Assembly (NCBI GenBank): GCA_963733675.1
Contig: CAVTET010000015.1
Location: 1 to 64,000 of the forward strand
DNA: 64,000 bases
Direction: 5' to 3'
From: an uncultured Methanosarcinaceae archaeon
Lineage (GTDB): Archaea > Halobacteriota > Methanosarcinia > Methanosarcinales > Methanosarcinaceae
Shown: piece by piece, positions 1 through 64,000 of the stretch
Position numbering within the stretch: position 1 is the stretch's first letter
Layout of the letters: each line of letters opens with the position of its first letter
Made by a program: the position numbers and the translations under genes
Notes under the pieces: model-generated
Database searches by the model: none
What the model saw: the letters and a program-made list of their open reading frames with translations, nothing else
What the model was told of the DNA's origin: nothing

Positions 1-296
1 TCATGATTTGAAAGGCAAATTGGATAAAGGAGAGAAAATAGTAATTCTTGATGTGAGAGACAAGAAAAAAATGGGATAAAGGACATATAAATGGAGCTAA
101 ACACATCTACGTTGGTTATCTGAAAGATAAACTGGATGAAGTTCCAAAAGATAGGCCTGTAATTGTTTATTGTGGCACTGCTCGGAGTGCTAATTTAGCG
201 GCTTCAATTTTGAAAAAGAATGGCTATGGTAAAGTATACAATGTCCTTGGAGGTATGACCGCATGGAAGAACGCTGGATATGATGTGGTAAAATGA
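1..296 (+). pseudogene. 3' end of a rhodanese-domain protein (probably an MBL-fold/rhodanese fusion), frameshifted
   Basis: Reads ...ILDVRD then, after a frameshift in the A-run at about 62-71, WDKGHINGAKHIYVG...VIVYCGT...VYNVLGGMTAW to TGA at 294-296; these are typical rhodanese motifs. Confidence 0.75.
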
Positions 297-626
297 GCAA
301 AATTTACTTTAGAATGTTTAATTATAGTCTCTAACTCGATGAATTCTACTTTTTATCACTGAATTGGACGTTTCCTTTCATTTTTTGAAAAGGAAAATGA
401 TTTTGATACTCCCCCTGGATTAATATTTGGAAAGATTTTTTTCCAAATAATCTCTTGAGTGCTTAAATCCCAATCTTCGCCTTTTAAGCACATAACTTCA
501 ATTTTTTTAATAGCTGATTTTACTTCTTCCATCTAGATAAGATCAAAAAATTCAGTGGCATTTTTACGATATAAATTCCGATGCTATTATATTTCTTCCA
601 AGAAAATATGTAATGGAGGATTTTAC

Positions 627-1084
627 ATGAGACTCGTCGATTATAAGAAAATAATGATTGCAACCGATGGCTCGGATTGCTCCAAGCTGGCTATTGACAA
701 AGGGATAGAGCTTGCTCGATTAAGTGGGGGAACAGTTTATGCAGTCTATGTGATATGGACAGCCTACTTATCTTCCGAGGGGTGAAATTGGGGATTTGAT
801 ACATAGAGGAATTGAAAAGCCAAGGGCAACAGGCTGTAGATTATATAAAAGATTAGGAGAGGTAAAAGGAATCAACGTAGAATCTGTCCTGCTTGAAGGA
901 AATCCCTCAGACGAGTTTTCTGAACCGGTATGTCGATGAGGAAAAAATGGATATTGTTATTATGGGCACCCTTGGAAAGACAGGATTAGACAGGATACTT
1001 CTGGGTAGTGTTGCAGGAAATCTGGTTCGTCACTCGAAGGTTCCTGTTATGGTTGTGAGGGAAAAGTGTGAGCCACAAGATTGA
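627..1084 (+). pseudogene. Universal stress protein (UspA family), disrupted
   Basis: N-terminal YKKIMIATDGS and C-terminal IMGTLGKTGLDRILLGSVAGNLVRHSKVPVMVVR are separated by stops and frameshifts at about 783-900; GGAGG RBS before ATG 627. Confidence 0.85.
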
Positions 1085-1099
1085 TCTAAAATAAACTGC

Positions 1100-1190
1100 A
1101 GAAGAACTCGGTAAACCCCAAAATTTCGTTCTATGTTTATAAATAATATATAAAATTACTCGTTAAAATCAGAGATTTATTGAAACCTCC
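1100..1190. mobile_element. MITE copy A (about 89 bp, IS5-type terminal inverted repeats)
   Basis: Degenerate TIRs gaagaactcggtaaacccc / agagatttattgaaacctc; the internal sequence aligns by eye with the copies at 22155-22243 and 13888-13984. Confidence 0.65.
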
Positions 1191-1405
1191 ATTATTTCTT
1201 TTTCTTATATTTTCTGTTTATGTTTGTGGTTTAGGTTAATTAGCTTCAGGTATTCCAGTAGTTACATATGCTCTAGGGATCCTATGAGTTCTATGAGCTC
1301 TACAAGTTATTGACCAGCAATTTTTTCTTTTTTCGGATGGAACTTAGGGAATTCAGAATTTTTCGCACAAAAACATCGATCTTAAAATATCATTTTAAAT
1401 ATATA

Positions 1406-1490
1406 GAGGATTTCAATAAACTCCTGATTTCATAAGCCTTGAATAACATATATGAGTACTTGATAAATTAAGGTGTTTATTGAGATCCGT
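1406..1490. mobile_element. MITE copy B
   Basis: TIRs gaggatttcaataaactcc / ggtgtttattgagatccgt spanning about 85 bp. Confidence 0.65.
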
Positions 1491-1744
1491 TTTAAGCCAC
1501 AATATACACTTTTCCCTTATTAATTAAAACTACTCTAAAAATAATAGTTTTGGGATAAAATTATTATTAAAACATCATTAATATCAAAATAATTTTAGAT
1601 TACTCTCCAATACTCAAATGTATAAGGATTTGTCTGAATTTTTGAGAACAAATCTAACAACTAAGAACAATACATAACTAAAAAAATGAGTAAATAATAC
1701 AGGTATATTAAGAAGTATATTTAAATAAGTAAGAAGGGAAGCAT

Positions 1745-2102
1745 TTGATCCAACTGAAAAGAATTTACGAACAATCCTCAGATAAAGATGGATTAAGGGT
1801 ACTAGTGGATAAGCTCTGGCCTAGAGGACTTCAAAAAATGAAGTCCGGCTTGACATCTGGCTAAAGGAAATAGCTCCTGATGAAGAGCTTAGAAAATGGT
1901 TTTCCCATGATCCTGATAAGTGGAAAAGTTGGGGAAACGCTTTATTTAAAGAACTGGAGCAGAAAATGAAGGAGTTGTACAAAAACTTGATTGAAAAAGG
2001 AAAGAAACTCATTTGACTCTGCTCTATGCTGCAAAGAATGAACGTTTCAATAACGCCATAGCTTTAAAGGAGTATATAGAATCTAGATTAAAGAAACTAT
2101 AG
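1745..2102 (+). pseudogene. DUF488/YeaO family protein, frameshifted
   Basis: Fragments [43 protein letters not shown] and TLLYAAKNERFNNAIALKEY lie in different frames. Confidence 0.8.
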
Positions 2103-2286
2103 CTATAAAAGATTAAATTGAACACAAAAACTGTATTTGATGGATAGCTGCAAGACGCGAACAGATTAATCCTGTACTTTTAATCATTTTAGATAATTTC
2201 GATAAACTTTTCCATCGTGATACAATATACCTGCCCGTAGAAAAACTAATAGAACGGGGATACAAATTGATAAATGGAGTGGAAAG

Positions 2287-3229
2287 GTGAAAAAGGATCA
2301 GTTGAAGCAAATTAAAGTTCTCGCTTTCGGAGAGGCTCTTTTTGATATAATTAAAGGTTCAGCTCATCTTGGAGGTGCTCCCCTTAACATTGCAGCCCAC
2401 CTTGCAAAATTGGGAGCAAAACCGACTGTAATAACAGCAATCGGAAAAGATGAGCTCGGTAAAGTTCTCCTTACCAGAACTGAAAAAATGGGAATTGACA
2501 CTTCATACATTTTAGTCGATAAAAAAAGACCAACTGGAACTGTTACTGTCAAATTGGAAGATGAGGGAATTCCTATATTCACTATCAATGAAGAGGTAGC
2601 CTGGGATGCAATCACTCTAGATGAAGAAAAATTTAAGGCGCTTGCAGGAAAGGAATGGGATGCCTTCTATTTCGGAACGCTTGCTCAAAGGTCGGAAAAA
2701 CAGGAAAACACTTAAAAGGCTGCTTTCAGAAATAAAGACAAACAATTTCTTCTACGATGTTAATCTGAGAGTTGGCTTCTACACAAAGAGATGGATATTA
2801 TCTTCTCTTGAACACTGCACGATTCTCAAAATGAATGAAGAAGAAGCTGCGACAATTTCTGACTTTCTTTTTGGCATCGTACACTCCTGTGATGCTCTCT
2901 GTCGCCTACTTACAGAAGAGTACCCTAAAATATCCTTAATTTGCATAACACAGGGACCTAAAGGAGCTGTAGCTTACAATAAGGGCGTCTACGAGGAAAT
3001 CAAAATCACTCCAATAGAAGTAGCGGATACAGTCGGAGCAGGTGATGCTTTTTCCGCAGGTTTCCTTTATACATATCTTTCAGGATACGGAGTTTCAAAA
3101 GCCACTTTAATTGCCAGTATTCTCGGAACCTACGTCGCATCAAAGACTGGTTCTGTGCCTGAATATTCCGAAAAACTCATAAAAGAATTAGAACTATTCT
3201 TTATGAAGGAATTAGAACTTATTTTATGA
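2287..3229 (+). pseudogene. PfkB-family carbohydrate kinase (fructokinase-like), split by one frameshift near 2700
   Basis: ORF 2287-2715 has FGEALFD and GGAPLNIA; ORF 2621-3229 has DVNLR and the DTVGAGDAF signature. Confidence 0.85.
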
Positions 3230-3369
3230 AGGCCTTATCGCAAAGTTAATATTAAGACAAACTCTAAAAAAATGAGAAAAATAATATTCAGATAAGCTCT
3301 TAGAGGAAAGGAAGAGCAAACCTTCTGAATTATCCAACGTAAATCAGTAGTTATTTTTCCGCTTTTTAA

Positions 3370-5781
3370 TTACCTGCCCAGTTTATTTTCCGTCTCCAGG
3401 ACTTTAAGGGTGATTTTCATAACCGAATCTGGATTTAGTGAAATGGAATCGATCCCCAGTTTTATAAGAAACTCCGCAATTTCAGGATAGTCACTTGGAG
3501 CCTGTCCGCATATCCCGCTATGCCTTCCATTTCTTTTTGCTCCCTGTACAGCCATTGCCATTATTTTCATAACCCCAGGATCCCGTTCATCGAATTCTGC
3601 GGCAAGAAGTTCGGAGTCTCTATCAACGCCGAGGGTCAGTTGGGTCAGGTCATTTGAGCCTATGGAAAAACCATCAAAGAATTCGCTTAATTCGTCGATA
3701 AGAAGAACGTTATTTGGAATTTCGCACATAACATAGACTTGTAGCCCATTTTCTCCTCTCTTTAGTCCGTTTTTTTCCATCTCAGCAATCACTTTCTGTG
3801 CCTCTTCAATTGTCCTACAGAAGGGAATCATAAGAATGAGATTTCGAAGCCCCATTTCATCCCGGACCTTTTTCATAGCCCTGCACTCAAGGGCAAAACC
3901 TTCCCTATAACGATCATCAAAATAACGAGAAGCCCCCCTGAAACCTATCATGGGATTATTTTCCACCATTTCAAAATAGATGCCTCCAAGAAGGCTGGCA
4001 TACTCGTTAGTTTTGAAATCGCTCATACGGACTACAACAGGTTTCGGATAAAAAGCCGCAACAATAGTTCCAACTCCTTGGGCAAGACGTTCAACAAAAT
4101 ATTCCTCTTTATCATAACCTCTTGTAAGTTGTTCGATTTCCCGAAGGACTTTAGGGTCTTTGACCCTTTCAGGGTGTACGAGAGCCATTGGATGGATTTT
4201 GATATAGCTTGTAATGATGAATTCTAGCCTCGCAAGCCCAATTCCGTCGTTGGGGATCATGGAAAAAGCAAAAGCTTCCTCAGGATTTCCAAGATTCATC
4301 ATAATCTCGGTTTTTGGGCGTTTAAGATCTTTTAAACTCAGAGTATCTTTATGGAAAGGAAGAATACCATCGTATACAATACCGTCCTCTCCTTCCGCGC
4401 AGCTTACTGTAATTTCCCTGCCTGTATCGAGCACCTCGGTTGCATTGCCTGCTCCTACGACTGCGGGAATTCCAAGTTCCCGGCTTACAATAGCAGCATG
4501 ACAAGTCCGGCCTCCTTTGTTTGTGACAATTGCAGCTGCAGTTTTCATGACAGGCTCCCAATCTGGAGTCGTTGTGTCCGCAATCAGGATTTCTCCTGGT
4601 TTAAAAGAGGGCAGATCCGAAACATCAGGAATCACACGAGCCTTTCCGGAAGCAATTTTGTCTCCTACACTCCTGCCTTTTGCAAGAATTCCAGATCTTT
4701 TTTCAAGTACATAGGTTTCCAGAATTTCTTTGCTTTTCTGAGATTGGACAGTTTCTGGCCTTGCCTGGACTATGAATAGTTCCCCTGTTATGCCATCCTT
4801 TGCCCATTCGATGTCCATTGGACGTGGTTCTCCATATTTATTGGAGTAGTGACCTTCGATAGTAATCGCATATCCTGTAAGTTCAAGCACTTCTTCGTCA
4901 TCAATACAGAAGCGGAGCTTCTCAGCTTCAGGAACTTCTACGTTTCGAGTGAGCACTTTGGAGTCTCCGCGACCGTAGATCATCTTGATCTCTTTGTTTC
5001 CCACCTTTTTTTGAATAATCGGCTGATATCCTTCCTTGAAAGTCGGCTTGAAGACATAGAACTCATCTGGATTAACCTGGCCCTGTACGATATTTTCTCC
5101 AAGTCCGTATGCACCTGTAATGAAAACCACTTCCCTGAATCCTGTTTCCGTATCCAGAGTGAAAATAACGCCGCTTGAGGCTAGATCTGACCTGACCATT
5201 TTCATAATCCCTATCGAGAGTCCTACTTTGAAATGATCATAGTTGTTTGTTACGCGGTAGGAAATAGCTCTGTCAGTGAAGAGTGAGGCAAAACAACGTG
5301 AGCAGGCATCCCTAAGACCTGGATAACCCCTTATATTTAGGTAAGTTTCCTGTTGGCCAGCAAAAGAAGCAGTTGGGAGATCCTCAGCAGTTGCCGAACT
5401 CCGTACAGCTACATCCGTATCGTCCCCATACTGCTCACATAAGCTATCATATCCAGTTTTGATTTCTTCCCAAAGATCGTCAGGAATTCCTGCCCCAAGG
5501 ATCAGGTCTCTAGCGATCTTCCCCCTTTTGGATAGGTCAGCGACGTTAGCAATATCAAGACCTTTCATTGCTTTTTTGAGCTTTTCTAGAATTCCCCCAG
5601 CTTTGAGGGTGTGCCAGTAAGCTTCAGCAGTTACCGAGAAGCCGTTTGGGATTTTAACCCCCTTCGAAGTAAGCTCCCTGTACATTTCTCCAAGAGAAGC
5701 ATTCTTTCCACCCACAAGCGGAACATCATCAATCGTAGTCTCTTCAAACCAGCGGATATACTTGCTTTTATTATCAGACAT
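3370..5781 (-). CDS. ppsA: Phosphoenolpyruvate synthase
   Basis: Intact ORF with VGGKNASLGEM, AVRSSATAED, GGRTCHAAIVSRE (phospho-His) and FSIGSNDLTQ; start placed at ATG 5781 after a GGGGG/GGAG RBS. Confidence 0.97.
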   Translation of the reverse strand: MSDNKSKYIRWFEETTIDDVPLVGGKNASLGEMYRELTSKGVKIPNGFSVTAEAYWHTLKAGGILEKLKKAMKGLDIANVADLSKRGKIARDLILGAGIPDDLWEEIKTGYDSLCEQYGDDTDVAVRSSATAEDLPTASFAGQQETYLNIRGYPGLRDACSRCFASLFTDRAISYRVTNNYDHFKVGLSIGIMKMVRSDLASSGVIFTLDTETGFREVVFITGAYGLGENIVQGQVNPDEFYVFKPTFKEGYQPIIQKKVGNKEIKMIYGRGDSKVLTRNVEVPEAEKLRFCIDDEEVLELTGYAITIEGHYSNKYGEPRPMDIEWAKDGITGELFIVQARPETVQSQKSKEILETYVLEKRSGILAKGRSVGDKIASGKARVIPDVSDLPSFKPGEILIADTTTPDWEPVMKTAAAIVTNKGGRTCHAAIVSRELGIPAVVGAGNATEVLDTGREITVSCAEGEDGIVYDGILPFHKDTLSLKDLKRPKTEIMMNLGNPEEAFAFSMIPNDGIGLARLEFIITSYIKIHPMALVHPERVKDPKVLREIEQLTRGYDKEEYFVERLAQGVGTIVAAFYPKPVVVRMSDFKTNEYASLLGGIYFEMVENNPMIGFRGASRYFDDRYREGFALECRAMKKVRDEMGLRNLILMIPFCRTIEEAQKVIAEMEKNGLKRGENGLQVYVMCEIPNNVLLIDELSEFFDGFSIGSNDLTQLTLGVDRDSELLAAEFDERDPGVMKIMAMAVQGAKRNGRHSGICGQAPSDYPEIAEFLIKLGIDSISLNPDSVMKITLKVLETENKLGR

Positions 5782-6599
5782 TCTCCATGAATCCCCCTTA
5801 AAATTAATTATATACGAAATAAACGATAACATATACATTTAAGATTTCATACATTAGTTTAGAAATTCTCCAAATCAGTACAGGATATTCTTGAGTGAAA
5901 AAGCTCCACTTGCAATTTATGCATCGATGACAGAAATGAGTTTCCTCTATCCACGTTATTTCAGTTTGGTGGTTATGGATAATTATTCTCGTTCAGATGC
6001 AGTTTGTCTCATAGTTTACAAAAAAACCTCCAATTTCCTCTATTACCTTTTCGCTTGCAATAACTAACACTCTGTTTCCAACAAATCCTGAACGAGTTCT
6101 ATTTTCGGTCATATTTTCTGCGCTATCTAAAGCAAATCATGAGTTTAGTTACCTTCACCTCAGCCATAGTTGCGAAATCTGTATAGTACCTCAAAGGCCA
6201 GGAACTAACTTAAACAGTTCATCGTCGACGCCACTGTGAAGCATGCATAGAATGATCCCTGGAATCTTCCAGTAATTTATCGATATCTTTGTCGATGCTT
6301 AACGTTCAGAGATTTAATGTTCTCAATGCAAAAAAAATAGGTTTATTGAAATTCTCTCTTTTAAATTAGGACTTTTATCTGAATCTCAAATTCCGTATAA
6401 AATTTGTTCTGGAAAGAATTCCTACAAGCGAGCCCTTATATCAATAACCATAGATCTCTAAATATTTTCAGAGAAAATCAGTTTCAGGGTTCACTAGATA
6501 GCGCATTGGAAGAAAGAGTATGACATATTTTGTCATATATCCAAAAACATATATGCACAATGCTCAGAATAGGGAATACACTAGACAAATTTCGAGTTA

Positions 6600-7980: not shown

Positions 7981-8005
7981 TTGGAACAGTAAATTGCCAC
8001 TTTTC

Positions 8006-8086: not shown

Positions 8087-8914
8087 CAACAGTCCCCCCA
8101 GTAACTTCATAAAATTGATTTTGGCGATACATTGCTATTTTTTCAATTTGGTTATAAAATTTCATGTTAATGAACCCGTTTTACTTTTGTTTGATTTTTA
8201 GTCCATAATGGGAATAGTCCTCATAAAATATAATTATTTTTATATTTTTAAGATGACTCAAAATCTGAAATGTGAGTTAACTGGAAACCTCAATCTTATT
8301 CACATGTCGGGACTTTTAAAATTGTAAGGCTCTTTCTCAATTAAAAATCGATATTAGAAGGATTTAGTTGATTTTACCTATGTGTTTCTTATCATTTTTC
8401 CTTTTCGACTAGTAAGTAATCTGTCAAATACTCTATTAAACTCTGGAACGTTCGAGTTTTGAAACATATAGACAGAAAAAATAAAAATTATTAAAACTAT
8501 TAGTACTTATGCATATGAGGTATAAAATTAAGGCTAAAGGGACCAAATGGAATCGTTTATAATGATTAAGCTACTGCTTTTTACTTGACTTTAAAAGGTA
8601 TATTTGATGATTGAAGAAAAGTGCACAACTCTAAAAAAAATCTGAAAAAATCTCCAATTGGCATATAATATTTTGATGATATAACTATGTAAGCTGCCAA
8701 AGGGTCGCAAGACATTTGTATATGGAAAAGTGATTGCCAATAATGAGAGTAAACTAATAACCGCAACGTATACGCCGGAAAAAATTGATAAACCAGTATC
8801 ATCCTTGGACGAAGACATAAAATAGATAATCTAATTCGAAGCGTAAGAATTCTGGAAAAGCATCATAAATCCTAAAGAAACCTCAAAATAAACTGAAAGC
8901 CGGTGGAAAAAAGC

Positions 8915-10887
8915 ATGACAAGACACATAGTCCTAGGCAATCAGTCCTTCCTCATAAATATAGACAGATTGTTCCCGGTAAGGGATATATATTACCCCCA
9001 CGTAGGCCAGGAAAATCACCTTATGGGGCATGCCCAACGGATAGGAATCTTTACTGACGGCAGGCTTTCTTGGGTCAATGAGGAAAGCTGGGAAAAGAAT
9101 CTTGCTTATAAAAACGATACCTTCGTCACCGAAAACCGAGCCGTAAACAGGGAGAAGAATATCGAACTCCTTCTGGAGGAGAACGTCTACCGCGAAGCCA
9201 ATATCTTTATCCGGAAAATAACTGTGAAAAACCTGCAGGAAAGGTCAAGGGAAGTCCGGCTTTTCTTTAATAACGATTTTCACTTGTACGGAGATGGAAT
9301 AGGGGACACCGCAGTGTACCAGATGGACCACAATGTCATAGTGCATTACAAAAGGTCCAGATATTTCCTGGTTGGTGTCCTCAAATCGAACATAACAGAG
9401 GATATCGTCACAGATATCGACGACTACGCCATAGGCCAGGCTGAAAATAGGGGCTTTCGAGGTACCTATGTGGACGCCGAAGACGGTGTTCTGTCAAAAA
9501 ACCCCATCGCTCAGGCTTCAGTAGACTCAACGGTGGGAGTAAGCCTGCAGATTCCAGGAAATTCCTCAAAGGTTGTGTACTATTACATGACCGCCGGAAA
9601 AGACTTTCAGGAAGTCTATCCCCTCAATAACCTGATCATGGACGAAGGCCCAGAAAGTCTTCTGGAGCGTACTGAGGAGTGCCAGATATCCTGGGTAAAC
9701 CAGGCAAGCACTGATCTTCGGGCCTTGGGCCCAGGCTTATAGCTCTCTATAAGCGCTCCCTCCTGATAATAAAGACCCAGACAGATGCAGGTGGAGCCAT
9801 AATAGCTGCAAATGACTCTGATACCCTGCAGTTTAACCGGGACACCTACAGTTATATGTGGCCCAGAGATGGAGCTCTTGTTTCGATTGCCATGATAAAA
9901 GCAGGCTTTCCAGAGTTCACAAAACCCTTTTTCAGGTTATGTAAAGATGTGCTTTGGTGGGCTGGATGCCTGTTGCACAAGTATAACCCCGACGGGATTC
10001 TGGGAAGCAGCTGGCACCCCTGGATAGATTATGGACAGCCACCCCTTCCGATTCAGGAAGATGAGACGTCTCTCGTCATCCATGCCCTGTGGAAATATTA
10101 CGAGGCTACCGGAGGACCTTGAGTTTGTAAAAGAACTCTATGAGCCCCTGGTAAAGAAAGCCATTTTTTCTTAGACGGCTACAATTACCCTAACGACATC
10201 CCGGTAGAGAGCTACGACCTGTGGGAAGAACGGAGAGGCATCTTTACTTTCATGGTCTCTGCGGTTTACAGAGGGTTTCTCTCAGGAGAAGAACTCGGCC
10301 GCCTTTTAAATGATGAGGAAATCTGCAGAATCTGTCAGATCCGTTATTCCAAGCTCAAGCAGGTGATCATAAACGAGCTTTATGACATCGAAAGAAACAT
10401 TTTTCTCCGTGGCATCAGATACGAAGACCACGACACAAACTGGAAAATAATAGACAGTACTGCTGACAGCAGTGTTTACTGGATCTTTGAGTTCGACCTG
10501 TTGCCCGCAGATGATCCCCGTGTAGTCAGGACAATTCAGAACCTGGAGGAAAAACTTTGGGTCCCTGGAAAGAGGGGAATGGCAAGATATGAAACTGACC
10601 CCTACCACAGGAAGACAGACCTGGTCACAGGTAACCCCTGGCTCATATGCACCCTTTGGCTTGCAAAGTGGTATGTCGCAAAAGCAAAAGAAAACAGGGA
10701 TCTAGAAAAAGCCCTCGAGCTGATCAACTGGGTTGCAGACTGCTCCCTTGAGACCGGGATTATGCCTGAACAGATACATCCCTTCACAGAAGAGTCACTC
10801 TCTGTAGCCCCTCTGACCTGGAGCCATGCAGAATTTGTGGATACAATTACGCGCTACCAGGAAAAGAAAGCGCAACTGAAGGTTTAA
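8915..10887 (+). pseudogene. Glycoside hydrolase family 15 (glucoamylase/trehalase-like), split into three ORFs
   Basis: Motifs GAIIAAND, Y.WPRDG, QEDET, YDLWEER, PEQ and PLTWSHA; frameshifts near 9740 and 10120-10165. Confidence 0.9.
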
Positions 10888-11669: not shown

Positions 11670-13099
11670 TCAATCTTCAAGCCCAATTTTTTTCAGGAAA
11701 TGGTGATAGTGTTCCAGTGGCATTCGCGAGTAGAAGACTCTGGTTACAACCTCACTCAGTGAGGGATGGATGTACATACCGCGCATTATTGGTTCTGCAC
11801 TTCTTGATTCCGTATACATAAGAGAGATTATCTGATGAATAAGGATTGAGGCATGAGACCCTATAATATATGCTCCGAGAATCTTCTCTTCCTCTTCATA
11901 TAGAATTACCTTTACAAAGTAGTCCTTTATCTCCATGGCCCTGCCCTTTGCAGTATCCTCAAAGAGTTTGAGACCTATGAACACTCTATCTTTCCCATAT
12001 TTTTTTATGGCTTTCTGCTCCCCCATACCTACCCCTGCAATCTCAGGATAGGAAAAGACTGCATGCGGTATGGCATGGTAGTCTACCTTCACTTTTTCTT
12101 TCAGGATGGCATTAAGGTAAACTATTCCTGACTCATAGTTTCCAACGTGCTTGAACAGATAATTTCCATTTGCATCTCCAAAAGCCCAGATATTTGGCTG
12201 GGACGTTTCAAGATATTCATTTACTCGAATCCAGCCCTGTAAGTCTGTTTTGATTTCGGCCTTTTCAGGATGGAGGATGTCGGTATTTGGAACTCTGCCT
12301 GTTGCCACGAGGATTTCATCTGCAGTAACCTTGACCTCTTCTCTCGAATTTTGTTCCTTTGCAACAATGATCTTCTGCCCGTTATCTTCTTTTCTAACTT
12401 CTATGGCTTCATAATTCGTAAGGATCTTTATGTACTCCGACATTTTTATCCCGGCAAGTTTGGAGATTTCAGGCTCTTCCTGAGGAAGAAACCTGGAGTT
12501 TCTTCCGATGATCGTGACCTCAGCCCCCATAGCCTCAAAAAAATGGCCATACTCGACTGCAATATAACTCCCTCCAAGAATGGCTAGACTTCGGGGGCAT
12601 TCATTTAACTGGAGAACAGTATCGCTTGTGAGATAACCAGCTTCTTCAAGCCCTTCAACAGGCGGGATTTCAGACCTTGAGCCCGTACACAGGAAAATCA
12701 TCTTCGAATAAAGCGTTTTATCCCCCACTTTTAGAGTATAAGGAGAAATGAATTCAGCAATGTCATGATAATAGTCAAGGTACAGGTTTTCGGTTAATAC
12801 ATTCCTCCTCGCTTCTATGCATTCCCATATTTTTCCCCTCATCCTCTCCATGATCGCAAGGAAATCAATGTCCTTTATCTCAGCCATTATCCCAAAAAGA
12901 GATGCAGTTCCCAGTTCCCTGATGAGTTCTGCAGAGTAGAGTAATATTTTTGAAGGAATACACCCCCAGTGAGGCAGATTCCTCCTGGTTCGTCTTTATC
13001 GATAACAGCAATTTTCATTTCCGGATTTGAATCGATGATAAGATCTAGGTAGTTCATTGCAGAACCTGTGCCTATCATAATCAGATCGTAATTTTCCAT
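11670..13099 (-). pseudogene. lpdA: Dihydrolipoamide dehydrogenase-like flavoprotein disulfide reductase, frameshifted
   Basis: YDLIMIGTG then GGICLT, with a frameshift inside the CxxxxC motif (CIPSK follows in another frame); later ILGGSYIAVE, AFGD and HPSLSE. Confidence 0.85.
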
Positions 13100-16564: not shown

Positions 16565-17419
16565 GGTTCAGTTGCAAAAACTTCAACAAAATATGTAAAT
16601 CTATAAGTAATTAATAAAAATCAAAATATTCCAGAAAAATGTACTAACATTATAAAGCTATACCAAATAATTGATTAATGTATTTGACTTCATTAAGAAC
16701 AGAGTAATTTAGATCGATTACTTGTCCTTTTTTGATCATATTTATAGCTTCAATTCCTTTTAAGGTTTTATTAGCAGATCGAAAAGACTGAAATCCTAAC
16801 ATTGGATTAACGATTCTCTTTATAGATCTGTGATCTTGTTCTATAATGTTATTCAAATACTTAATTTGTCTAATTTCAACATTTTTAGGTAGTATTTTAT
16901 CATTTTTCAGTTTATCTATAGCAGGTGGATAAGCTGGATTCTTATCAACGGTTATTAATCTTGGAATTTGATTATGATTAGAACTCAAAGCTTTCTTAAA
17001 GAATCTCTTCGCTGCCTTTCTATCTCGTTTTGAACTTAACATGAAATCAATTGTATCTCCATTTGAGTCAACTGCTCGGTAAAAATATTTCCATTTACCT
17101 TTTACTTTGATATAGGTTTCATCAACTCTCCACGAATCATTTGTTGGTCTTAAATGTCTTCTTATCTTCTTTTCTAGTTCAGGGGAATATTGATGTACCC
17201 ATCTCATGATTGTTGTATGGTCGACTTTTACTCCCCTTTCTGCCATCATTTCCTTTAAATTTCTATAACTTAATGCATATTTTAAGTACCATCTTACATT
17301 CAATAAGATAATTTCCCCTTCATAATGCTTCCATTTAAAGGAATTAGATAGCATGTTACTATCTTTGGTTTTCTTTTTATTCTATTGTATCATTAGAAAG
17401 GATTTTTTGCAACGGAACC
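16565..17419 (-). mobile_element. IS6-family insertion sequence, copy 1 (855 bp)
   Basis: IRs GGTTCAGTTGCAAAAA and GGTTCCGTTGCAAAAA; flanks TGATATTG and TTTATAAG do not match. Confidence 0.95.
16650..17354 (-). CDS. IS6-family DDE transposase
   Basis: 234 aa with WRVDETY, YRAVD, TVDK and NNIIEQDHR. Confidence 0.95.
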   Translation of the reverse strand: MLSNSFKWKHYEGEIILLNVRWYLKYALSYRNLKEMMAERGVKVDHTTIMRWVHQYSPELEKKIRRHLRPTNDSWRVDETYIKVKGKWKYFYRAVDSNGDTIDFMLSSKRDRKAAKRFFKKALSSNHNQIPRLITVDKNPAYPPAIDKLKNDKILPKNVEIRQIKYLNNIIEQDHRSIKRIVNPMLGFQSFRSANKTLKGIEAINMIKKGQVIDLNYSVLNEVKYINQLFGIAL

Positions 17420-46675: not shown

Positions 46676-46880
46676 AACATTTTTTATTCGGCGCGCGAGC
46701 CTTCAATCCCAGTGCCGTTATTAATCGATGATCCTCACTGATACCGAGGTTAAGCATGGTTAGTAGTTTGTCGCCGGTGAAAATCGATGTGGATTCTGCC
46801 AGAAACGCCAGAGCCTGCGCCTTGCGGCCGATTTTAATGCTGCCCGCTGAAGAATGCATCATTTCCTTCGGCACCAGATT
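46641..46880 (-). pseudogene. bioB: C-terminal remnant of biotin synthase
   Basis: SAG...QALAFLAESTSIFTGDKLLT.LN...ED..LITALGL matches the BioB C-terminus (canonical RLSAGR..QALCF.AGANSIF.GDKLLT.PN); the radical-SAM domain is absent. Confidence 0.8.
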
Positions 46881-46931
46881 TTTTGTTTGGTTAAATACTT
46901 GTTTTTCCATTTGTCTATACTCCAAACTGTT

Positions 46932-48249: not shown

Positions 48250-48640
48250 GTTAGATGATAGTTCATCAATAGTGAATTGACGTTTAGGTCCCATCTGCTG
48301 AGATCTACACTGGCTGCGTTGAACAATCATAGTGAAAGGATCCATTGTAAACAGATCGTTTCCCATCAGAAAAAAGTACAAGCTGATCAAGCGTTTCCGC
48401 TCCCAGGTACCTATCTGACTATGAACTGTTGCATCCCCTATTTTCTTATGATTGCCTTTGTTTCTCCCAACTCTTCCCCAGGTATATCCAGGCTAGTTAC
48501 AAGAGCTTTAACACCTTCATTTTCAGCTTTTGCTATTGTACTATGATATCATCTGAAGCCGGAGTGATAGCTCCTGGAATTTTAAACAGAAGTACTTTAT
48601 TTTCAATTCCCGCCAAACTAAAGATACAGATGCTGTAGAA
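48250..48640 (-). pseudogene. NfeD-family membrane protease N-terminal fragment
   Basis: IPGAITPASDDII..IAKAENEGVKALVTSLDIPG..L.ETK...VPGSGNA*SA with stops and frameshifts. Confidence 0.7.
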
Positions 48641-50952: not shown

Positions 50953-50959
50953 ACACTGA

Positions 50960-51420
50960 TTACATCTTTCGTTTTCCTAATAAATTCTGATGGATCAAAA
51001 CGTTTTGCTCTTCGCATACCTGAATTCTTGTATTTCTCAGGATCTTTCGAGACAACTTATTGGTCTGACGATACTTTCTATGTTTGCTTCAACTAGCAAC
51101 CCTGTTTCTTCATCAATCATACTTTCAAGGTAGCCACCTTCTCTAACTGCTACCATGGGTTTTCCTGTATCCATAGGTTCAATAGGTGTCATTCCAAAAT
51201 TCTCATTCTTTTAGTGTTAATGTGACCTATACAGGTGGCATAAACTCAAGTAATTTTCCTAGCAAACATTGCCCATGAGCGTTACGTTTTCCAGGAGCTC
51301 CGTAATTAACTTAGATGCATAGCGTGATGCATGATCTCCTGCTTCATAGCCACCGACAATAAGCAATTTTTGATCTGGCTTTTTCTGAAAACTTCGATCT
51401 GTAGCATGTAACTGTTGTGC
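50960..51420 (-). pseudogene. Glycosyltransferase family 4 C-terminal fragment
   Basis: ENFGMTPIEPM..GKPMVAVREGGYLESMIDEETGLLV (E-x7-E motif), frameshifted. Confidence 0.7.
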
Positions 51421-55584: not shown

Positions 55585-56302
55585 TCATTCATTTTAAATT
55601 GCTTGTTTAAATCCCGTTGCAGACGAAATATTTGTGAGCCCATATCTAAAATATCCTTTCTGAAACTTACTTTAGTAGTGCCTCCCGGTTCCACATTACC
55701 GGGAATTCTTTCACTTTATATCCTTGGTACTGTGCAAGAACAAAAAGTTCGGTATCAAAAAATCAGTGTTGATCCCTAACTTTGTCAATCAAATTAAACA
55801 ATGAATCTCTTCTAAACGCTTTAAATCCACATTGATGGTCATATAAATTTGAGTGTAATAAGGTTCTTATCAAAAAATTGAACTCTCGGTTAGCTAAGTT
55901 TCTTTTTAAAAGTCTTTTTACTTTACTTTGAGGCATTATTCTGGAGCCTGTCGCGAAATCATATCCTTCTACTGATATTGACTCGATGAGATCCTTCAGA
56001 TAATTCATATCAGTTGCAAGATCCACATCAATGTAACAAAGTACTTCACCTGACGCGGATTTGAAAGTGTTAGTTAAGGCTCTGCCGCGTCCTTGGTACG
56101 AATCTAAGTGAAGATGCCGTACATAGTTATATTTTTTAGTATTTTTATTAGCAATCTTATCAGTTCCATCACTGTTCCCATCCTCTGCTACAACAATCTC
56201 AAAAGATGACGTAATTTTTTTCAGGTTTTTTGTAGTTTGGTTTACTGTTTCTTCTAATCTAACAGCTTCATTATATGCCGGTAATATCAATGAGACTTGC
56301 AT
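55585..56302 (-). pseudogene. GT2 dolichyl-phosphate glycosyltransferase, nonsense-disrupted
   Basis: ILPAYNE, EDG, DVD and DHQCGFKAF; TGA replaces the Trp in HW.FDTE at 55763. Confidence 0.8.
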
Positions 56303-57434
56303 AATATTAACGTCCTTCACATACGAAATACTATTTTATATTTTGTATTAAATATATATATAGCTATATATATTTGTTATACACAGTTCTTCAGCTTTAG
56401 CATTTAATGTATTATCGTGCACAAGATCGCGGTAGAGGATATCTTCGGTGCCTAGATGTTGAATGTTGAATAAATTGTTAATTCGCATCCAGTAATAGTA
56501 ATTCTCACATCCAAAAGTGAAAAGGTCATAATCCCCGATGATCTTACCAGCAAGGCCCCAGTACATAAAACAGGAACCTATAAAATTATCATTTTTCTCA
56601 TTTAGTTTCTCTATAAGGTTCTGTTGCAAAAATTAACTATTATTGAAATCAAAGTTCATTATGAATTGGAGAGGAAAATACTGTTGATGCTGCACATACC
56701 AACAATATCTAAATTATTTAAGGAAGGTATTATTTTTATTTTCACTTGAACATAATTTATAATGTAATGCATGTGCAACAATGAAGTAGTGAAAGGTTTC
56801 TACTGTTCAGAGTAATTGAAATGGTTTCCTATTCTCTGATGAAGTATGAGTGCTTTTTAGCAATCTCCTATATGATGACAGAGTACTACGAGTTCGTTTA
56901 AGATTATTGCAACAGATGGGTTTTGCGGCTTCAGAACATGTTCGCAAATATCAAGTGCTCTTTATAAAGCTCTTGTTTCCTATTATCCTAACTAAGCGTC
57001 GATTCAATCTGATAGTAGCATCTCGATATCCTGGATAAAGTTATTTTACTAAAATAGATTTATTTTTCTTAAATTCAAACAAAAAAATCACTTATAATTT
57101 CAGCCGAAATTGGTAAAATGCATAGATTTAGACCCAAAAAAAACTATGCATAGAATTATTCAGTATGTACTAAGTATAAAAACAGTAGAAGTAAACAGAA
57201 AATAAAGAAATTATGCTGAAAGAAAAATTAGATCAATGATTGCTTCTCAAGTTAAAAGCCAGAAAAATTATTCAATTGCTGTAAAACAAGTATTTTTGGC
57301 TTAATAATTCTTAAGATTGTTAATTTTATATATAGATTTGTATATTAATAAATTGTCACAAATCAAGCACGAAAATTAGAAAAAGCAATTATACTTTAGA
57401 ACATTTTTGAGATATGACTTTCGACACTTTCATA

Positions 57435-60336: not shown

Positions 60337-60429
60337 TTCCCATTACTAAAATTTTTAATATCAAAAAGAATAGAGAAGGTAATATCTGAACTAACTTTGC
60401 ATTAACTTGAGACATCAACTAAATGGATT

Positions 60430-61209
60430 TATGCAGTTGTAGATTGCCGTGATATGCTTATCTAGCAGGTTGTCGAAATATTTATGGATGGTTAACTAGT
60501 AGTGATCGTTGCAAATGAGTATCGAATTGACGCATTCTGATACATGCAAATAGGACTTTTCTTGGTTACCATCGCCCAGAATCTCCAGTTGGGTATGATT
60601 TCCTCTCAGCTTTCTGATAAAATCAACAATAATCCCATGAGTGCTAAGAGGGCCGACAATGTTTGCAAAACGAAAAATCCATGCTTGCATATCAAAGGTG
60701 TGAGAGTATGAGGTAATAAGAGCTTCATAAGCAAGTTTGGAAGCGCCGTACAGTGGGAATAAGGGCGCTGTAATCCTCTGGAATGGGCATTATCTGTGCC
60801 TCTCCATAAATTGTAGAGGTGGAAGTAAATACAACCTTTTTAACGTTGTTTCTCCTCATAGCTTCCAGAAGATTGTAGGTTGCCAAAATGTTCTGATCGA
60901 AATGTATTTTAGTAACTGAAGCCCCAAGTCTTACATCTGGATTCGCAGCTACATGACAAACTAGTTCAATGTCTCTGCAGGCTCTTTCTATCATTTCATT
61001 GTCAAGAATGTCTCCTTTTATAATGTGAAATCAGTTTTTTCAAGATGTTTCTCTATAAATCCAATTTTTCCTGAACTCAGATTATCAAAAATAATAATTC
61101 TGTTATCTTCTATAAGATGATCCACCAGGTGGCTTCCTATAAAACCGGCTCCTCCTGTCACAAGTATGTTATTTTTTGTAGCATTGGAAATATCTAGATA
61201 ATGGTCCAT
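60430..61209 (-). pseudogene. NAD-dependent epimerase/dehydratase, frameshifted and truncated
   Basis: [37 protein letters not shown] and RFANIVGP in three frames. Confidence 0.88.
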
Positions 61210-61368
61210 TTCTCATTGATCAATTTTGCACCTTTTTCAGGTCCTAAAAAATTTATTGCTTCAACTTTCTGTGTTTGACTAGTAAATGTTCGAAAAATTA
61301 GGATACTACAAATAACACATACTTAAAATTCTAATTGTGACAGTTAAATAAAAATTTATGTTATTAGT

Positions 61369-61712
61369 CTTGTCTTATCGACCAAAATGCAAACAAAACT
61401 TAGAATATATGAAATCACTCCTAACGACAATATATGATTTCATATAGGGATTATTTTACTATTGAAAATCTATATAAGCAGCTCCATCTGTCCTTCATTT
61501 TAGGTCAGCACAAAACTAGAGGAATCGACTTTAATTCCCTAATCAAAGCTTTACTAAGCTATAAGCTTACAGAGAATTTCAGTATATATCACCTCCATAA
61601 ATGGATCAGCCAGAATGAAGTCCTAGAATTTTCCGGTCTTGAGAAATCTAATGAAAGGCTTCGATATAGAACCCCCCAAATTTTTGGGAGCAAAAAAGAA
61701 TAAATGATTTTT
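61369..61712 (+). mobile_element. IS1634-family transposase 5' relic
   Basis: End motif ttgtcttatcga, MQTKLRIYEITPNDNI and HKTRGIDFNSLIKALLSYKLTENFS; stops at the repeat at 61717. Confidence 0.65.
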
Positions 61713-61716
61713 GAGC

Positions 61717-61808
61717 TTTGTAGAAAACCTATATAAGTCAGCTTCAAGAGACTGAAGATAAATAAGTAAAAAGATCTCAGGCCATTAAGTTCAAATTAAT
61801 GGGAATTC
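61717..61808. repeat. Dispersed repeat shared with 53433-53525
   Basis: Same exact 20-mer and downstream blocks as the partner copy. Confidence 0.65.
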
Positions 61809-62849
61809 TTTAATTTTAGTAATCCAGCTTCTACGGGAACAATACCGTCTGAGGAGGTCTGACTAGCTGTTGACGACTCTACTAATTGCACTACCTAACA
61901 AACCCGCTGAACTTTATGCTGTGTCATATGTAATGTTGATTTGAACTAATATCAAGTTTTCATTAGTTTTTAGCTGATATATGTACAATGTATATGCCAG
62001 ATACGCTAGCGATATATACAATATTGATATCGGCATGCATCTTTACAATATTTTAAATTATACTTACTGCTCTGACTTTTCTCGATAAAATCGGATTATC
62101 GAATGTTGAATTGCCATATAGTCCCAATCACACTGATATTAGCCCAACGTGCGAATATAGTGTGCTGAACCAACGTAGATAGACGTAGTAGACGGTTCCC
62201 CACATTGGTTTTCATGATATTTATATTCTCATATAAATTTAAGTTGCGTCTTGGTTTGCTTAAGGTTCCCATTTTCCTTTTCTGGGAGAGAATACATCAT
62301 TAGTCACAAATTAATATACTTCATATGATGAAAGTGTTAAACAGGATTACATATAAATGATTAGTTTTCCGATGAAAAACTTCGGTATCAAATTAAAGTT
62401 TTTCATACTTCATACATATGGCAACGATTCATGAGGGTTTGTGATGAAAAGGAAAAAATTAAATATGTTATTTTTTAGTATAAATTTGGAGGAGTTTAGA
62501 CTTTTATGACGCTCTCTATAATGGATGTATATGAAAGTCAAGCATCTTATCCACATGTAAACTGAGACGGATTTAAAGAGGAATTGTTTGAATAAGAAAT
62601 ACGGAGTTGGATCCAAAAAAGATTAAGAATAGAAGGAAATAACTACTTAACCGATGTTCGGTATCTAACTTTTTAGATAAATATTCAACCTACCAAAAAC
62701 AGTTCATTTATATTGATTTTGACGTAATGAATATGCTTAATCACTAACTGATGACAAAAAACATAACCACTAACTGCCAGTTAAATGAAATAAACTCACT
62801 GAAATTTGCCAATTAAATCTTAGTAAAAACAATTGTTTATATTGTTTGG

Positions 62850-64000
62850 CTAAGTTTGAATAGTTACTTTTTTAGAATATTTAAAGCAATTTTGACCTAA
62901 TATTTTACTTTCTCTTTCGTTGTTTGCAAGAAATTCCAAACACGCTTCAGCTTCCAATGCACCACAATAATATAGGCCACAGTTTCCTTTTGTGCAGATA
63001 CTTTTCAAAATATCATTCATTTCTGGAACTAGAATAGGAAACTTATTATTAAAAGCTATATTTAGCTCATCTTCACCTATCTTTGGATCAACTACCCATA
63101 AAATTTTGACTCTTTTTAACTGATCATCTTGGAGCCATTCGGCCATTATAAAGCGGGAATTTAGTTCTGGATTTTTATTTAAAAAATAAGCCATCGCCTG
63201 AGTACATCTAGAATCAAAATTTTTGCCGACACATGCGATTACCATTTCTTCATCGCGCTGGAGTTCAAATTCAGAATTTTTTAAGTTGTAAATATCAACT
63301 ATTTTTTTAACTTGATTCCCTAATGTATTATTTGCAATTTTATTATGTGCAAACTCTCCAAAAATTGTTATTTTCTCCGGATGTAACACAAAATCTGACA
63401 TTTTTTGGGCAAGGTCTTTCGGATTTCCCGGTTCAAAAAGCGATCCTGTTTTTCCATCTTCGATGAGTTCTGGGATTCCACCTGAATTTGAACCAATAAC
63501 CGGAATTTTTGATGCCATTGCTTCTGTTATTGTTACAGGCTGGTTTTCAGGCCAAATAGATGGAAGAATGAGGACATCTGTATTACGATAAGCATTACCA
63601 ATATCATCAATTCTACCCCAAAAGGAAACGATATTGTTAAGTCTCATATTTTTAACTTTAGTCTTAAGATTCTCCATCAATTCTCCTTTGCCTATAAGAT
63701 TAACAGAAACGCAATTCAGATTTTTAAGGTATGCCAATGCCTCAATTAGCACATCGATACCTTTATGTTTGCCAAAATATCCGATGAAAGTAAATCTAAT
63801 TCTTTTGTCATCAGGAACGGTTGAAAAATTCGAAAATTTTTGGACATCAACCCCATTCCATATAACATGCATTTTATCTTCAGGTATACCAGCCAAATAA
63901 TAATTATTTGCAAGGTATTGACTTGGAGATATAAACTCATCTACATCTCTAAAAATGAATTTAAAAAAATCTTGCCTGATTCTCATGGGAATATTTCTGT
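62850..64000 (-). CDS. Glycosyltransferase family 4 (5' end beyond the window)
   Basis: VIWNGVD, HKGID, LPSIWPENQPVTITEAMAS and GGIPELI; the frame is open to the window edge. Confidence 0.85.
   Translation of the reverse strand, partial: RNIPMRIRQDFFKFIFRDVDEFISPSQYLANNYYLAGIPEDKMHVIWNGVDVQKFSNFSTVPDDKRIRFTFIGYFGKHKGIDVLIEALAYLKNLNCVSVNLIGKGELMENLKTKVKNMRLNNIVSFWGRIDDIGNAYRNTDVLILPSIWPENQPVTITEAMASKIPVIGSNSGGIPELIEDGKTGSLFEPGNPKDLAQKMSDFVLHPEKITIFGEFAHNKIANNTLGNQVKKIVDIYNLKNSEFELQRDEEMVIACVGKNFDSRCTQAMAYFLNKNPELNSRFIMAEWLQDDQLKRVKILWVVDPKIGEDELNIAFNNKFPILVPEMNDILKSICTKGNCGLYYCGALEAEACLEFLANNERESKILGQNCFKYSKKVTIQT

Follow-up and report, generated by a model that had tools for sequence, protein, structure and literature searches.

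Sodalis glossinidius and Mycobacterium leprae are bacteria that became host-restricted recently and whose genomes are at an early stage of reduction, with about half of the DNA coding and about a thousand pseudogenes. The genome sampled here, from a methane-producing archaeon of the genus Methanosarcina, resembles them in having about half of its DNA in long ORFs, hundreds of gene relics, proliferated insertion sequences (IS), raised dN/dS, a shift towards AT, and selective survival of essential genes. Unlike them, it carries no sign of a host, is unreduced at 3.9 Mb, has intact mismatch repair, and shares its state with several other species. Among methanogens, ciliate endosymbionts are described in Methanocorpusculum, Methanobrevibacter and Methanobacterium (Lind 2018 and Beinart 2018, cited in PMC12662959; bioRxiv 10.64898/2026.05.13.724943). 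As far as the excerpts of these sources go, many pseudogenes were found in two of three sequenced cases, as here, although these are other genera, mostly H2 users taken from inside protists, with genomes that in some cases have changed little, whereas the DNA studied here was recovered from bulk soil and peat metagenomes. In the excerpted text of PMC4143802 and PMC4649490, the free-living cyanobacterium Trichodesmium erythraeum IMS101 has about 60% of its DNA coding. The present lineage resembles it in being apparently free-living, in a coding density far below that of relatives, and in its many repeats and mobile elements, but is an archaeon of anoxic soil.

The window, i.e., the whole 64-kb stretch analysed here, stands on contig C15 of the assembly G000 (92% completeness, 2.7% contamination). 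G045, G059, G063 and G046 denote other genomes of its clade, C1 to C15 contigs of this assembly, and X1, X3 and X9 public runs. These genomes are metagenome bins, and G000 includes redundant contig ends and at least one region unsupported by reads. ORF density, taken as the share of DNA in ORFs of at least 100 aa with no gene finder and with small genes and RNA genes uncounted, is 48% in the window and 52.9% in G000. Normal density in the rest of the genome, which the sequence-only reading had named as evidence against erosion, was not observed, the values being equally low (41–60%) over 44 windows of 80 kb. Stretches from three sister species have densities of 57.5, 39.6 and 53.0%, in contrast to 64.8–81.3% in eleven stretches, samples of 80–400 kb rather than whole genomes, from ten other species of the genus. 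The gap persists at all ORF cut-offs from 50 to 150 aa. The ten control species bear the same genus label as G000, their purL and purH proteins are 80–91% identical to its own, and their spacers are already longer than those of most prokaryotes, with 65–81% of the DNA in long ORFs; the clade differs from them in its 40–58% and in a GC content of 34–36.5% versus 38.5–44.7%. Since the three sister species lie in the range of 40–58%, the whole clade is affected, and since at least three sister species with about 90% DNA identity have the same architecture, the state is old and stable.

Gaps of more than 1 kb between ORFs make up 31% of G000, compared with 5–8% in four control stretches. Outside long ORFs there are 314 relic-like segments per Mb, versus 137 per Mb in one control. 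Of the non-ORF DNA, one fifth can be recognised as dead coding sequence and one quarter consists of repeats, while about two thirds has neither protein similarity nor repeats. The window itself contains about 17 broken or stub cellular genes, four dead mobile-element genes and about 26 intact genes, so that the earlier figure of about 20 broken genes was approximately right. In the broken genes, neighbouring ORF pieces align to consecutive stretches of one Pfam model each. Beyond the contig start, which is treated separately below, they are:

8903..10887, plus strand: GH15 glucoamylase-like gene; three 1-nt indels (~9717, 10114, 10164-10170), Pfam matching the C-terminal piece only
11670..13099, minus strand: pyridine nucleotide-disulphide oxidoreductase (lpdA-like) gene; 1-nt deletion at 12968, Pyr_redox_2 N-terminus in a separate ORF
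41496..41606, minus strand: cbiM stub; reduced to the last ~39 residues, which share 77% identity with the C-terminal end of a CbiM-family ORF on C1
42577..43249, plus strand: thi4 gene; four indels and two stops, Thi4 profile 94-187 of 235
43499..43639, minus strand: pentapeptide-repeat protein gene stub, in a spacer
46641..46925, minus strand: bioB stub; BATS-domain end only (profile 28-88 of 88, E 1.9e-5)
48286..48632, minus strand: nfeD stub; matches a 443-aa NfeD-family ORF on C6
49359..50850, minus strand: wzt (ABC ATPase) and wzm (ABC-2 permease) genes; several indels and stops
51049..51393, minus strand: group-1 glycosyltransferase (GT1) gene relic; 3 stops
55608..56320, minus strand: truncated family-2 glycosyltransferase (GT2) gene; 185 aa versus 484-583 aa in other species
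60406..61209, minus strand: NAD-dependent epimerase gene; three ORF pieces, 8 stops relative to its paralogue

An M50 stub, also claimed earlier, was not found in the window, while those of cbiM and nfeD were confirmed. Uninterrupted paralogous matches exist for lpdA-like (C5:22374-23801, 80% identical) and for thi4 (C4, spanning 1-177 of 223 residues), and an intact cluster on C6 holds wzt and wzm copies with 35–55% identity. The sister genomes contain intact versions of five window genes (USP, DUF488, pfkB, GH15 and lpdA-like); for GH15 this is a 661-aa ORF and for lpdA-like a 476-aa ORF, both in G059, and the lpdA-like copy of G045 is broken at different places. The window's thi4, wzt and wzm ORFs are shorter than their sister counterparts, of which thi4 and wzm are N-terminally short themselves. 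The long core genes had been described as flawless, and they are open, as are further genes:

3370..5838, minus strand: ppsA (PEP synthase type), intact, 822 aa
14030..16180, minus strand: purL, intact, 716 aa
28809..30425, minus strand: purH, intact, 538 aa
31690..32973, plus strand: lysA-type decarboxylase, intact, 427 aa
38969..41483, minus strand: cbiO, cbiQ and a PDGLE-domain gene, all open
43651..46675, minus strand: bioA-bioD-bioF island, intact, GC ~51%

The bioA-bioD-bioF island is retained in four sister genomes at 88–93% identity. The breaks that sister genomes show in ppsA, lysA and cbiO could be assembly errors.

Breaks within the first 20 kb of the window were compared with contigs from public runs. 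Those of X1 match the window with 0 differences over 7035-11534, 11602-13013 and 12984-16434, and a contig of X3, from a separate study, does so over 9509-10515. More than 9 kb is thus reproduced exactly, including four indel lesions. The GH15 breaks (X1 contig 7035-11534, X3 contig 9509-10515) and the lpdA-like break (X1 contig 11602-13013) recur letter for letter. The only breaks that vanished on comparison with the runs were those at the contig start, where the assembly holds three versions of the same region:

1..5930, no strand: assembly-redundant contig-start region; versions on C15 (the window), C14:17221-20466 and C5:338073-343999
555..1084, plus strand: universal stress protein (USP) gene, broken in the window version only; two ORFs match the Usp profile at 2-39 and 96-141 of 141
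1745..2087, plus strand: DUF488 gene (Pfam DUF488), broken in the window version only
2287..3229, plus strand: pfkB-family sugar kinase gene; 2-nt deletion at ~2698 and 1-nt insertion at 3198, PfkB profile 31-135 and 146-296 of 302

Window 1-5930 shares 97.4% identity with C5 and 98.5% with C14, the mismatches being clustered in small dense patches. USP is an intact 174-aa ORF on both C5 and C14, and all four public runs compared have the C5/C14 letters at 757-805, which contradicts its break in the window. DUF488 is intact on C5, C14 and C12; the corresponding 118-aa ORF of G059 matches the window in three frames with one stop, and the contigs of X1, X3 and X9 lack 1923-2000. The pfkB gene is intact on C5 (306 aa) and in G045, G059 and G063, and its break is missing from X1, the best-matching run, whose contig over 2000-3325 shows 19 letter differences and 6 gap letters relative to the window, precisely the numbers obtained with the C5 version. 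The runs carry the intact version that C5 also holds for all three genes, and the breaks in the first 3.3 kb are an assembly variant not to be counted. Several contig ends of G000 overlap one another.

The spacers, which had been said to be full of relics, hold the cbiM, nfeD, pentapeptide, GT1 and GT2 stubs together with transposase remains. The mobile elements of the window are:

16566..17419, minus strand: IS6-family insertion sequence, copy 1; 234-aa transposase (DDE_Tnp_IS240, E 6e-49)
19377..19595, minus strand: DDE_Tnp_1 (IS4-type) transposase gene relic
22302..22753, minus strand: IS200-type Y1 transposase gene relic, containing stops
33466..34320, plus strand: IS6-family insertion sequence, copy 2; recent insertion, 16-bp inverted ends, 8-bp target duplication CTTTTTAT
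35332..35832, plus strand: IS605 OrfB / integrase-type gene, old relic with 14 stops

The two flanks of copy 1 lie on different contigs in G059, and the empty site of copy 2 is seen in G045, in agreement with the IS activity noted earlier. Elements of the IS6 family (IS26/IS240 type) produce an 8-bp target duplication, and the window element conforms to this family in its single DDE_Tnp_IS240 transposase gene, its length of about 855 bp, its 16-bp inverted ends and its 8-bp duplication. It differs in a copy number unusually high for a single archaeal genome: G000 has 115 copies of at least 700 bp, all of one element and 82–98% identical, while five complete genomes of the genus outside the clade have 0–2 weak partial matches each. 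At least one further copy exists for 35% of G000, and at least five copies for 10%. Many of the repeat families are short (120–800 bp), dispersed and ORF-free.

With the same reference ORFs, broken loci number 13/182 and 12/151 in G000 versus 6/190 and 8/193 between two other species, an excess over distant references that is only about twofold and marginal (pooled Fisher p = 0.03). Within the clade the count is 32/223 versus 16/450 in a control trio (p = 1.5e-6), and overall broken conserved genes are roughly two to three times as frequent in G000 as in the controls, although in every comparison many of the calls concern ORFs of 100–200 aa that may not be genes. Pooled dN/dS is 0.15–0.20 in the clade (79 genes) versus 0.083–0.087 (174 genes), for pairs that differ threefold in dS (0.2 vs 0.7). 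In the two genes that were matched, it is 0.148 versus 0.05–0.07 (purL) and 0.22–0.235 versus 0.04–0.05 (purH), so that the clade exceeds the control pairs two- to fivefold. Low density, pseudogene excess, raised dN/dS and IS proliferation bear out the erosion pattern of the sequence-only reading: most of the erosion is genuine, and it extends well outside the window. The inference of a host-restricted or endosymbiotic lifestyle in that reading is not supported.

Life inside a host, e.g., anaerobic peat protists, with early reductive evolution, an IS bloom and pseudogenes, would account for the low ORF density, IS proliferation, pseudogene excess, raised dN/dS and low GC. The loss of catabolic genes also fits this reading, the failure of a search to find Cas1 would suit a sheltered life, and pseudogene-rich endosymbiotic methanogens are on record (Lind et al. 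2018, cited in the excerpted text of PMC12662959). However, Methanosarcina is not among the eight ciliate-endosymbiont methanogen genera given in that excerpt. The runs holding this DNA, among those listed, are 20 bulk metagenomes from 13 studies (8 from soil, 9 from peat, 1 from wetland and 2 unspecified); a soil or peat label is compatible with a protist host. The contig depth of about 11–13 in one run of 2.26 billion letters represents a considerable proportion for an endosymbiont. A genome of 3.9 Mb at 92% completeness, open MutS and MutL, and the same state, with orthologous spacers, in three or more sister species at about 10% divergence also argue against host restriction, which we regard as improbable. 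We think it just as doubtful that the erosion is mostly technical, arising from a mixed-strain bin, consensus errors at contig ends or leftover indels that chop ORFs. Such an origin explains the contig start, where dense patches of mismatch set window 1-3300 apart from all four runs and the same assembly has an intact version, and it draws on the overlapping contig ends, the completeness and contamination values, and sister bins that are 73–92% complete, some with broken housekeeping genes. It does not explain why exactly reproduced sequence includes four indel lesions, why GC is 30.8% outside ORFs but 40.2% within them, when chopped coding sequence would not be so distinct, or why long genes are flawless while several others bear 3 to 8 lesions each. 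In-frame stops are mixed (TAA 27, TAG 13, TGA 13), no reassignment of a stop codon restores the broken ORFs, and four separate assemblies are equally low in ORF density.

The non-coding fraction might instead be kept as useful regulatory or small-RNA space, as proposed for Trichodesmium, with the pseudogenes as a side issue. In favor of this, the spacers are orthologous and have retained their length among clade species, and the 60% coding DNA of that free-living cyanobacterium (excerpts of PMC4143802 and PMC4649490) provides a precedent. Between clade species, however, spacers change faster than ORFs (87% versus 93% identity) and have some 20 times more indels (13–15 versus 0.7 gap openings per kb), no Rfam family reached threshold in the window, and dead coding sequence and repeats occupy one fifth and one quarter of the non-ORF DNA, respectively. 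We therefore consider retention for function rather unlikely.

In our judgment the window is probably representative of a degraded and repeat-rich genome organisation common to a small peat and wet-soil clade of the genus; as the likeliest reading we favor a lineage that lives freely, experiences weak purifying selection and bears a heavy mobile-element load. Of 59 genomes of the genus, 55 encode MtaB, mostly in three copies; in the clade, G000, G045 and G063 lack it, G059 has it split and G046 has one copy. MtmB occurs in 44 of the 59 and in none of the five clade genomes; mtaB and mtmB are thus missing or decaying. McrA and acetate kinase are open. That the losses include the methanol and monomethylamine methyltransferases, catabolic hallmarks of Methanosarcina, suggests a diet that has narrowed but retained acetate use. 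We propose that purifying selection in the clade would be weak because the effective population is small or the niche has narrowed, and that this could let one IS6-family element and numerous short repeats without coding capacity multiply while non-essential genes gained frameshifts, stops and truncations. Because dead DNA would be removed slowly, AT-rich spacers and gene relics may have accumulated until long ORFs made up about half of the genome, whereas essential genes would remain intact, since their loss is lethal.

The window is the initial 64 kb of a 74.9-kb contig (C15) of the assembly GCA_963733675.1 (G000), which comprises 3.92 Mb in 15 contigs (C1 to C15), with a GC content of 35.7%, a completeness of 92.2% and a contamination of 2.7%. 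This genome shares its genus with 58 others, and its purL protein is 80-84% identical to that of 18 of them. The closest relative is the sister genome G045 (DNA identity 93-97% over the window), followed by G059, G063 and G046 (about 87-92%), and these five genomes are referred to here as the clade. The 400-kb stretches of two distant species contain just purL and purH from the window. Within the assembly, C3:1-15688, the whole of C14, C5:338073-345907 and C15:1-5930 overlap as contig ends at 97-99.9% identity, as do C2/C13 and C8/C9/C10. Because C14 joins the start of C3 either to the end of C5 or to the start of C15, the G000 bin contains alternative paths, i.e., strain variants or an unresolved 6-kb repeat.

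Open reading frames (ORFs) of at least 100 amino acids, whose share of the DNA serves here as a proxy for coding density distinct from gene-finder output, account for 48% of the window and for 52.9% of G000, with values of 41-60% in every one of 44 windows of 80 kb across the genome. Three stretches from the sister genomes have a cover of 57.5, 39.6 and 53.0% (GC 34-36.5%), as against 64.8-81.3% (median 74.4%) in eleven stretches of 80-400 kb from ten other species, and this gap holds for cut-offs from 50 to 150 amino acids. The median spacing between long ORFs is 545 bp in G000 versus 202-250 bp in the controls, gaps of more than 1 kb make up 31% of the genome versus 5-8%, and the GC content is 40.2% in ORFs and 30.8% in the remainder. 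The sequence-only reading had seen the window as part of a selectively eroding genome, and low ORF cover does extend genome-wide; the window is not exceptional, and low ORF density is a feature of the clade. Stop-codon reassignment, for example by wide pyrrolysine read-through, was ruled out as the cause, since it does not restore the ORFs: with TAG or TGA read as sense, the cover of a 264-kb contig rises from 51.7% to only 56.6% or 58.9%. The in-frame stops at broken loci are 27 TAA, 13 TAG and 13 TGA. In the non-ORF DNA of G000, relic-like segments make up 20% and repeats 25%, and 66% falls into neither class.

The sister genomes have 91 ORFs of at least 80 amino acids with a match in the window, where 68 of them are intact, 22 broken and one partial. 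The split genes are found in the ORF lists as adjacent pieces which fit consecutive parts of a single Pfam model, and the lesions can be placed by alignment to the sister genomes.

Broken genes and IS6-family copies in the window (positions of the window; Pfam cover; lesions)
555-1084, USP gene: pieces cover 2-39 and 96-141 of the 141-position model
1745-2087, DUF488 gene: broken
2287-3229, pfkB: pieces cover PfkB model 31-135 and 146-296 of 302; a 2-nt deletion and a 1-nt insertion
8903-10887, GH15 gene: Pfam match to the C-terminal part alone; three 1-nt indels
11670-13099, lpdA-like gene: Pyr_redox_2 match with the N-terminus in a separate ORF; one 1-nt deletion
thi4: Thi4 model 94-187 of 235; four indels
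wzt/wzm: five indels
NAD-epimerase: three pieces
bioB: end of the BATS domain as the sole remnant
16566-17419, minus strand: IS6-family element, copy 1
33466-34320, plus strand: IS6-family element, copy 2

The spacers of the window contain stubs of cbiM, nfeD, a pentapeptide protein, one GT1 and one GT2, together with remnants of transposase genes of the IS200, IS4 and IS605 types. Of the isolated stubs named from the sequence alone, those of cbiM and nfeD were recovered, and an M50 stub was not found in the window. The earlier figure of about 20 broken genes is a fair one, since the tally comes to about 17 degraded cellular genes and four dead mobile-element genes, next to about 26 open genes. 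The long core ORFs described as flawless (ppsA, purL, purH and lysA) are indeed all open. In sister bins (among them G045, G059 and G063), ppsA is spread over two or three ORFs, lysA is split in G063 and cbiO in G059, all three genes being intact in G000; these splits reflect either independent decay or assembly errors in the sisters. The genes bioA, bioD and bioF (window 43651-46925) form an intact island with a GC content of about 51% in a 36% GC genome, which adjoins the bioB stub, is kept in four sister genomes at 88-93% identity, and looks like an old transfer from bacteria. A segment of about 690 bp (window 13221-13910) is a dispersed repeat, present on several contigs per sister genome at 87-92% identity, with a weak match to a DUF4352 protein and full of stops. 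A search of the window against Rfam gave no match.

Whether the lesions would vanish against independent data was examined over window 1-20000 with contigs from four public metagenome runs belonging to four studies. Contigs from run X1 match window 7035-11534, 11602-13013 and 12984-16434 with no differences, and a contig from run X3 matches 9509-10515 with none. All three GH15 indels thereby recur in contigs of two studies, and X1 also has the lpdA-like one. A contig from X9, a third study, differs over window 9470-10348 in 21 letters and three gaps, the same number of gaps as there are GH15 indels, and may be the intact GH15 allele of a related strain. At the contig start, all four runs have other letters at 757-805 (inside USP), contigs from three runs skip 1923-2000 (inside DUF488), and the X1 contig over 2000-3325 differs in 19 letters and six gap letters. 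Within the assembly, window 1-5930 is in fact present in triplicate: besides C15, it occurs at the C14 end and close to that of C5. In the C5 version, the USP (174 aa), DUF488 (118 aa) and pfkB (306 aa) genes are all intact; over 2000-3325 it is separated from the window by exactly 19 substitutions and six gap letters, and its differences lie in dense patches separated by long identical stretches. Since the runs disagree with the window there and an intact version is present on C5, the USP, DUF488 and pfkB breaks are a variant of the contig start, due to either an error in the consensus or a rare strain, and are not to be counted, while the GH15 and lpdA-like breaks stand. The pfkB deletion may exist in some strain, as the C14 version has it too.

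Decay across the genome was assessed with 959 reference ORFs of at least 120 amino acids, taken from nine stretches of eight other species and matched at 55% identity or more; antisense shadow ORFs and stops in false N-terminal extensions were filtered out, and the same rules were applied to the controls. The 331 conserved loci identified in G000 divide into 277 intact, 26 broken, 14 partial and 14 short ones. With the same references and rules, 13 of 182 and 12 of 151 loci are broken in G000, compared with 6 of 190 and 8 of 193 between two other species (pooled p = 0.03). Clade references give 13 broken among 113 loci in G000, and the reverse comparison gives 2 of 38 in G059, 10 of 31 in G046 and 7 of 41 in G063; a control trio with comparable divergence at the protein level yields 3/120, 2/105, 6/120 and 5/105. 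Pooled, the clade has 32 of 223 loci broken versus 16 of 450 in the trio (p = 1.5e-6), and the rates in G000 and the clade are about two to three times those of the controls. Because the reciprocal comparisons each reveal broken loci, every clade genome has its own set of lesions. Segments with protein-level similarity outside long ORFs number 1230 in G000 (314 per Mb) versus 137 per Mb in a control stretch with better reference cover; since the control baseline probably consists of true small genes, we estimate the excess of relics in G000 at the order of several hundred.

The decayed conserved loci include a FilR1-type regulator, a Y-family polymerase, a K+ channel, an aldehyde dehydrogenase and two transporters. 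The MetRS gene (G000:C3:474424-476520) has seven stops, all in the part matching the C-terminal tRNA_bind domain, and its catalytic and anticodon parts are open. Redundancy of duplicated genes was ruled out as a general explanation, as an uninterrupted paralogue was found for only 4 of 40 broken or partial loci; within the window, paralogues do exist for the lpdA-like gene, thi4, wzt/wzm, USP, DUF488 and pfkB. Loss of mismatch repair as the cause of decay was likewise rejected, because MutS and MutL, the two repair genes examined, lie in open frames of 950 and 652 amino acids, respectively, with no stops. In non-ORF DNA, the small indels polarised to the G000 branch comprise 27 deletions and 8 insertions, almost always of 1-2 bp and too few to establish a deletion bias.

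When G000 is aligned with its sisters, identity is 93% in ORFs and 87% in orthologous spacers, and gap openings number 0.7 and 13-15 per kb, respectively; the evolution of the spacers looks close to neutral. The pooled dN/dS is 0.147-0.204 in the clade (79 genes, dS 0.21-0.28) versus 0.083-0.087 in a control species pair (174 genes, dS 0.71-0.76). For purL (0.148 versus 0.05-0.07) and purH (0.22-0.235 versus 0.04-0.05), the only two genes matched between the sets, the ratio is two to five times higher in the clade, at a threefold difference in dS between the pairs. Selection in the clade is likely to be relaxed, a grading which takes account of the unequal divergence that weakens the dN/dS comparison.

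The activity of insertion sequences (IS) invoked in the sequence-only reading is borne out by an IS6-family element of about 855 bp, present in G000 in 115 copies of 700 bp or more (82-98% identity). Its sole gene is a 234-aa transposase ORF (DDE_Tnp_IS240, E value 6e-49, profile 2-139 of 139). Copy 2 ends in inverted repeats of 16 bp and is bordered on both sides by an 8-bp target duplication, CTTTTTAT, which occurs once in the empty site of G045, indicating a recent insertion. Five complete genomes of other species have just 0-2 weak partial matches to the element. Copies 1 and 2 flank a 16-kb segment in inverted orientation, and the distance from purL to purH is 14 kb in G000 and 43-45 kb in three other species, the two genes being on separate contigs in G059, which points to a rearrangement mediated by the IS. 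At 75% identity or more, 35% of G000 DNA has one or more further copies and 10% has five or more, partly owing to redundant contig ends, and many repeat families of 120-800 bp are without an ORF. A search for the Cas1 family was negative in G000 and positive in a control genome of the genus.

McrA and acetate kinase are open in G000. Of the 59 genus genomes, 55 have MtaB, mostly in three copies. In the clade, G000, G045 and G063 are without it, in G059 it is divided between two frames (C19:109133-110505), and G046 has a single copy (C15:4708-6078). MtmB occurs in 44 of the 59 genomes and in none of the five clade genomes. With mtaB missing, split or single and mtmB absent, the clade is, on its gene content, predicted to be shedding methylotrophic methanogenesis. 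Outside the clade, G009 (99% complete, 2.9 Mb) is also without mtaB and mtmB.

The erosion syndrome is real except at the contig start, genome-wide, and common to the clade. In its low ORF density, its many pseudogenes and the proliferation of IS elements in G000, it is like the early reductive evolution seen in host-restricted symbionts, and the sequence-only reading had proposed such a host-restricted or endosymbiotic lifestyle. However, genome sizes in the genus span 2.3-5.8 Mb, so that G000, at 3.92 Mb and 92% completeness, is not smaller than its free-living relatives, mismatch repair is kept, and there is no sign of a host. DNA of window 1-10000 was found, among the matches listed, in 20 runs from 13 studies. 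Eight of these runs are labelled soil, nine peat, one wetland and two simply metagenome, and none is labelled host-associated, although bulk samples may contain protist hosts. The eight methanogen genera given as ciliate endosymbionts in a section of PMC12662959 do not include Methanosarcina. On these grounds, host restriction is quite unlikely, and the lifestyle proposed from the sequence alone is not upheld.

That most of the apparent erosion is an artefact is doubtful to the same degree: the breaks at the contig start are of that kind or come from a rare strain, and those in GH15 recur in a second study. A function for the non-coding DNA is unlikely as well, if a little less so; the evolution of the orthologous spacers looks close to neutral. 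We consider it reasonably probable that drift or a narrowing of the niche, together with a burden of mobile elements, acts in a free-living methanogen of peat and soil, since there is no size reduction, repair loss or host sign and since a free-living cyanobacterium with about 60% coding DNA is on record in a part of PMC4143802. The bolder proposal, that early host restriction, with an IS bloom and many pseudogenes, has been caught here for the first time in this genus and in a large-genome archaeon, is very improbable. Were host restriction true, an anaerobic protist living in peat could be the host, and a narrowing of diet, with methanol and methylamine use lost, would together with relaxed selection be its earliest genomic signs. 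In the main texts of the open-access literature, no description of such a clade was found, and no statement on the coding density of the genus was found in PMC4455057 and PMC7289037.

The clade is widespread in methane-emitting peat and wet soils. If whole-genome annotation confirms the low density, it would, to our knowledge, rank among the most gene-poor archaeal genomes known. In that case, the clade would also serve as an archaeal test case for the roles of drift, mobile elements and slow DNA loss in shaping genome architecture outside symbiosis. Moreover, the decay of the methanol and methylamine methyltransferases predicts a substrate range narrower than that assumed for the genus, which bears on how such sequences are read in surveys of the methane cycle.
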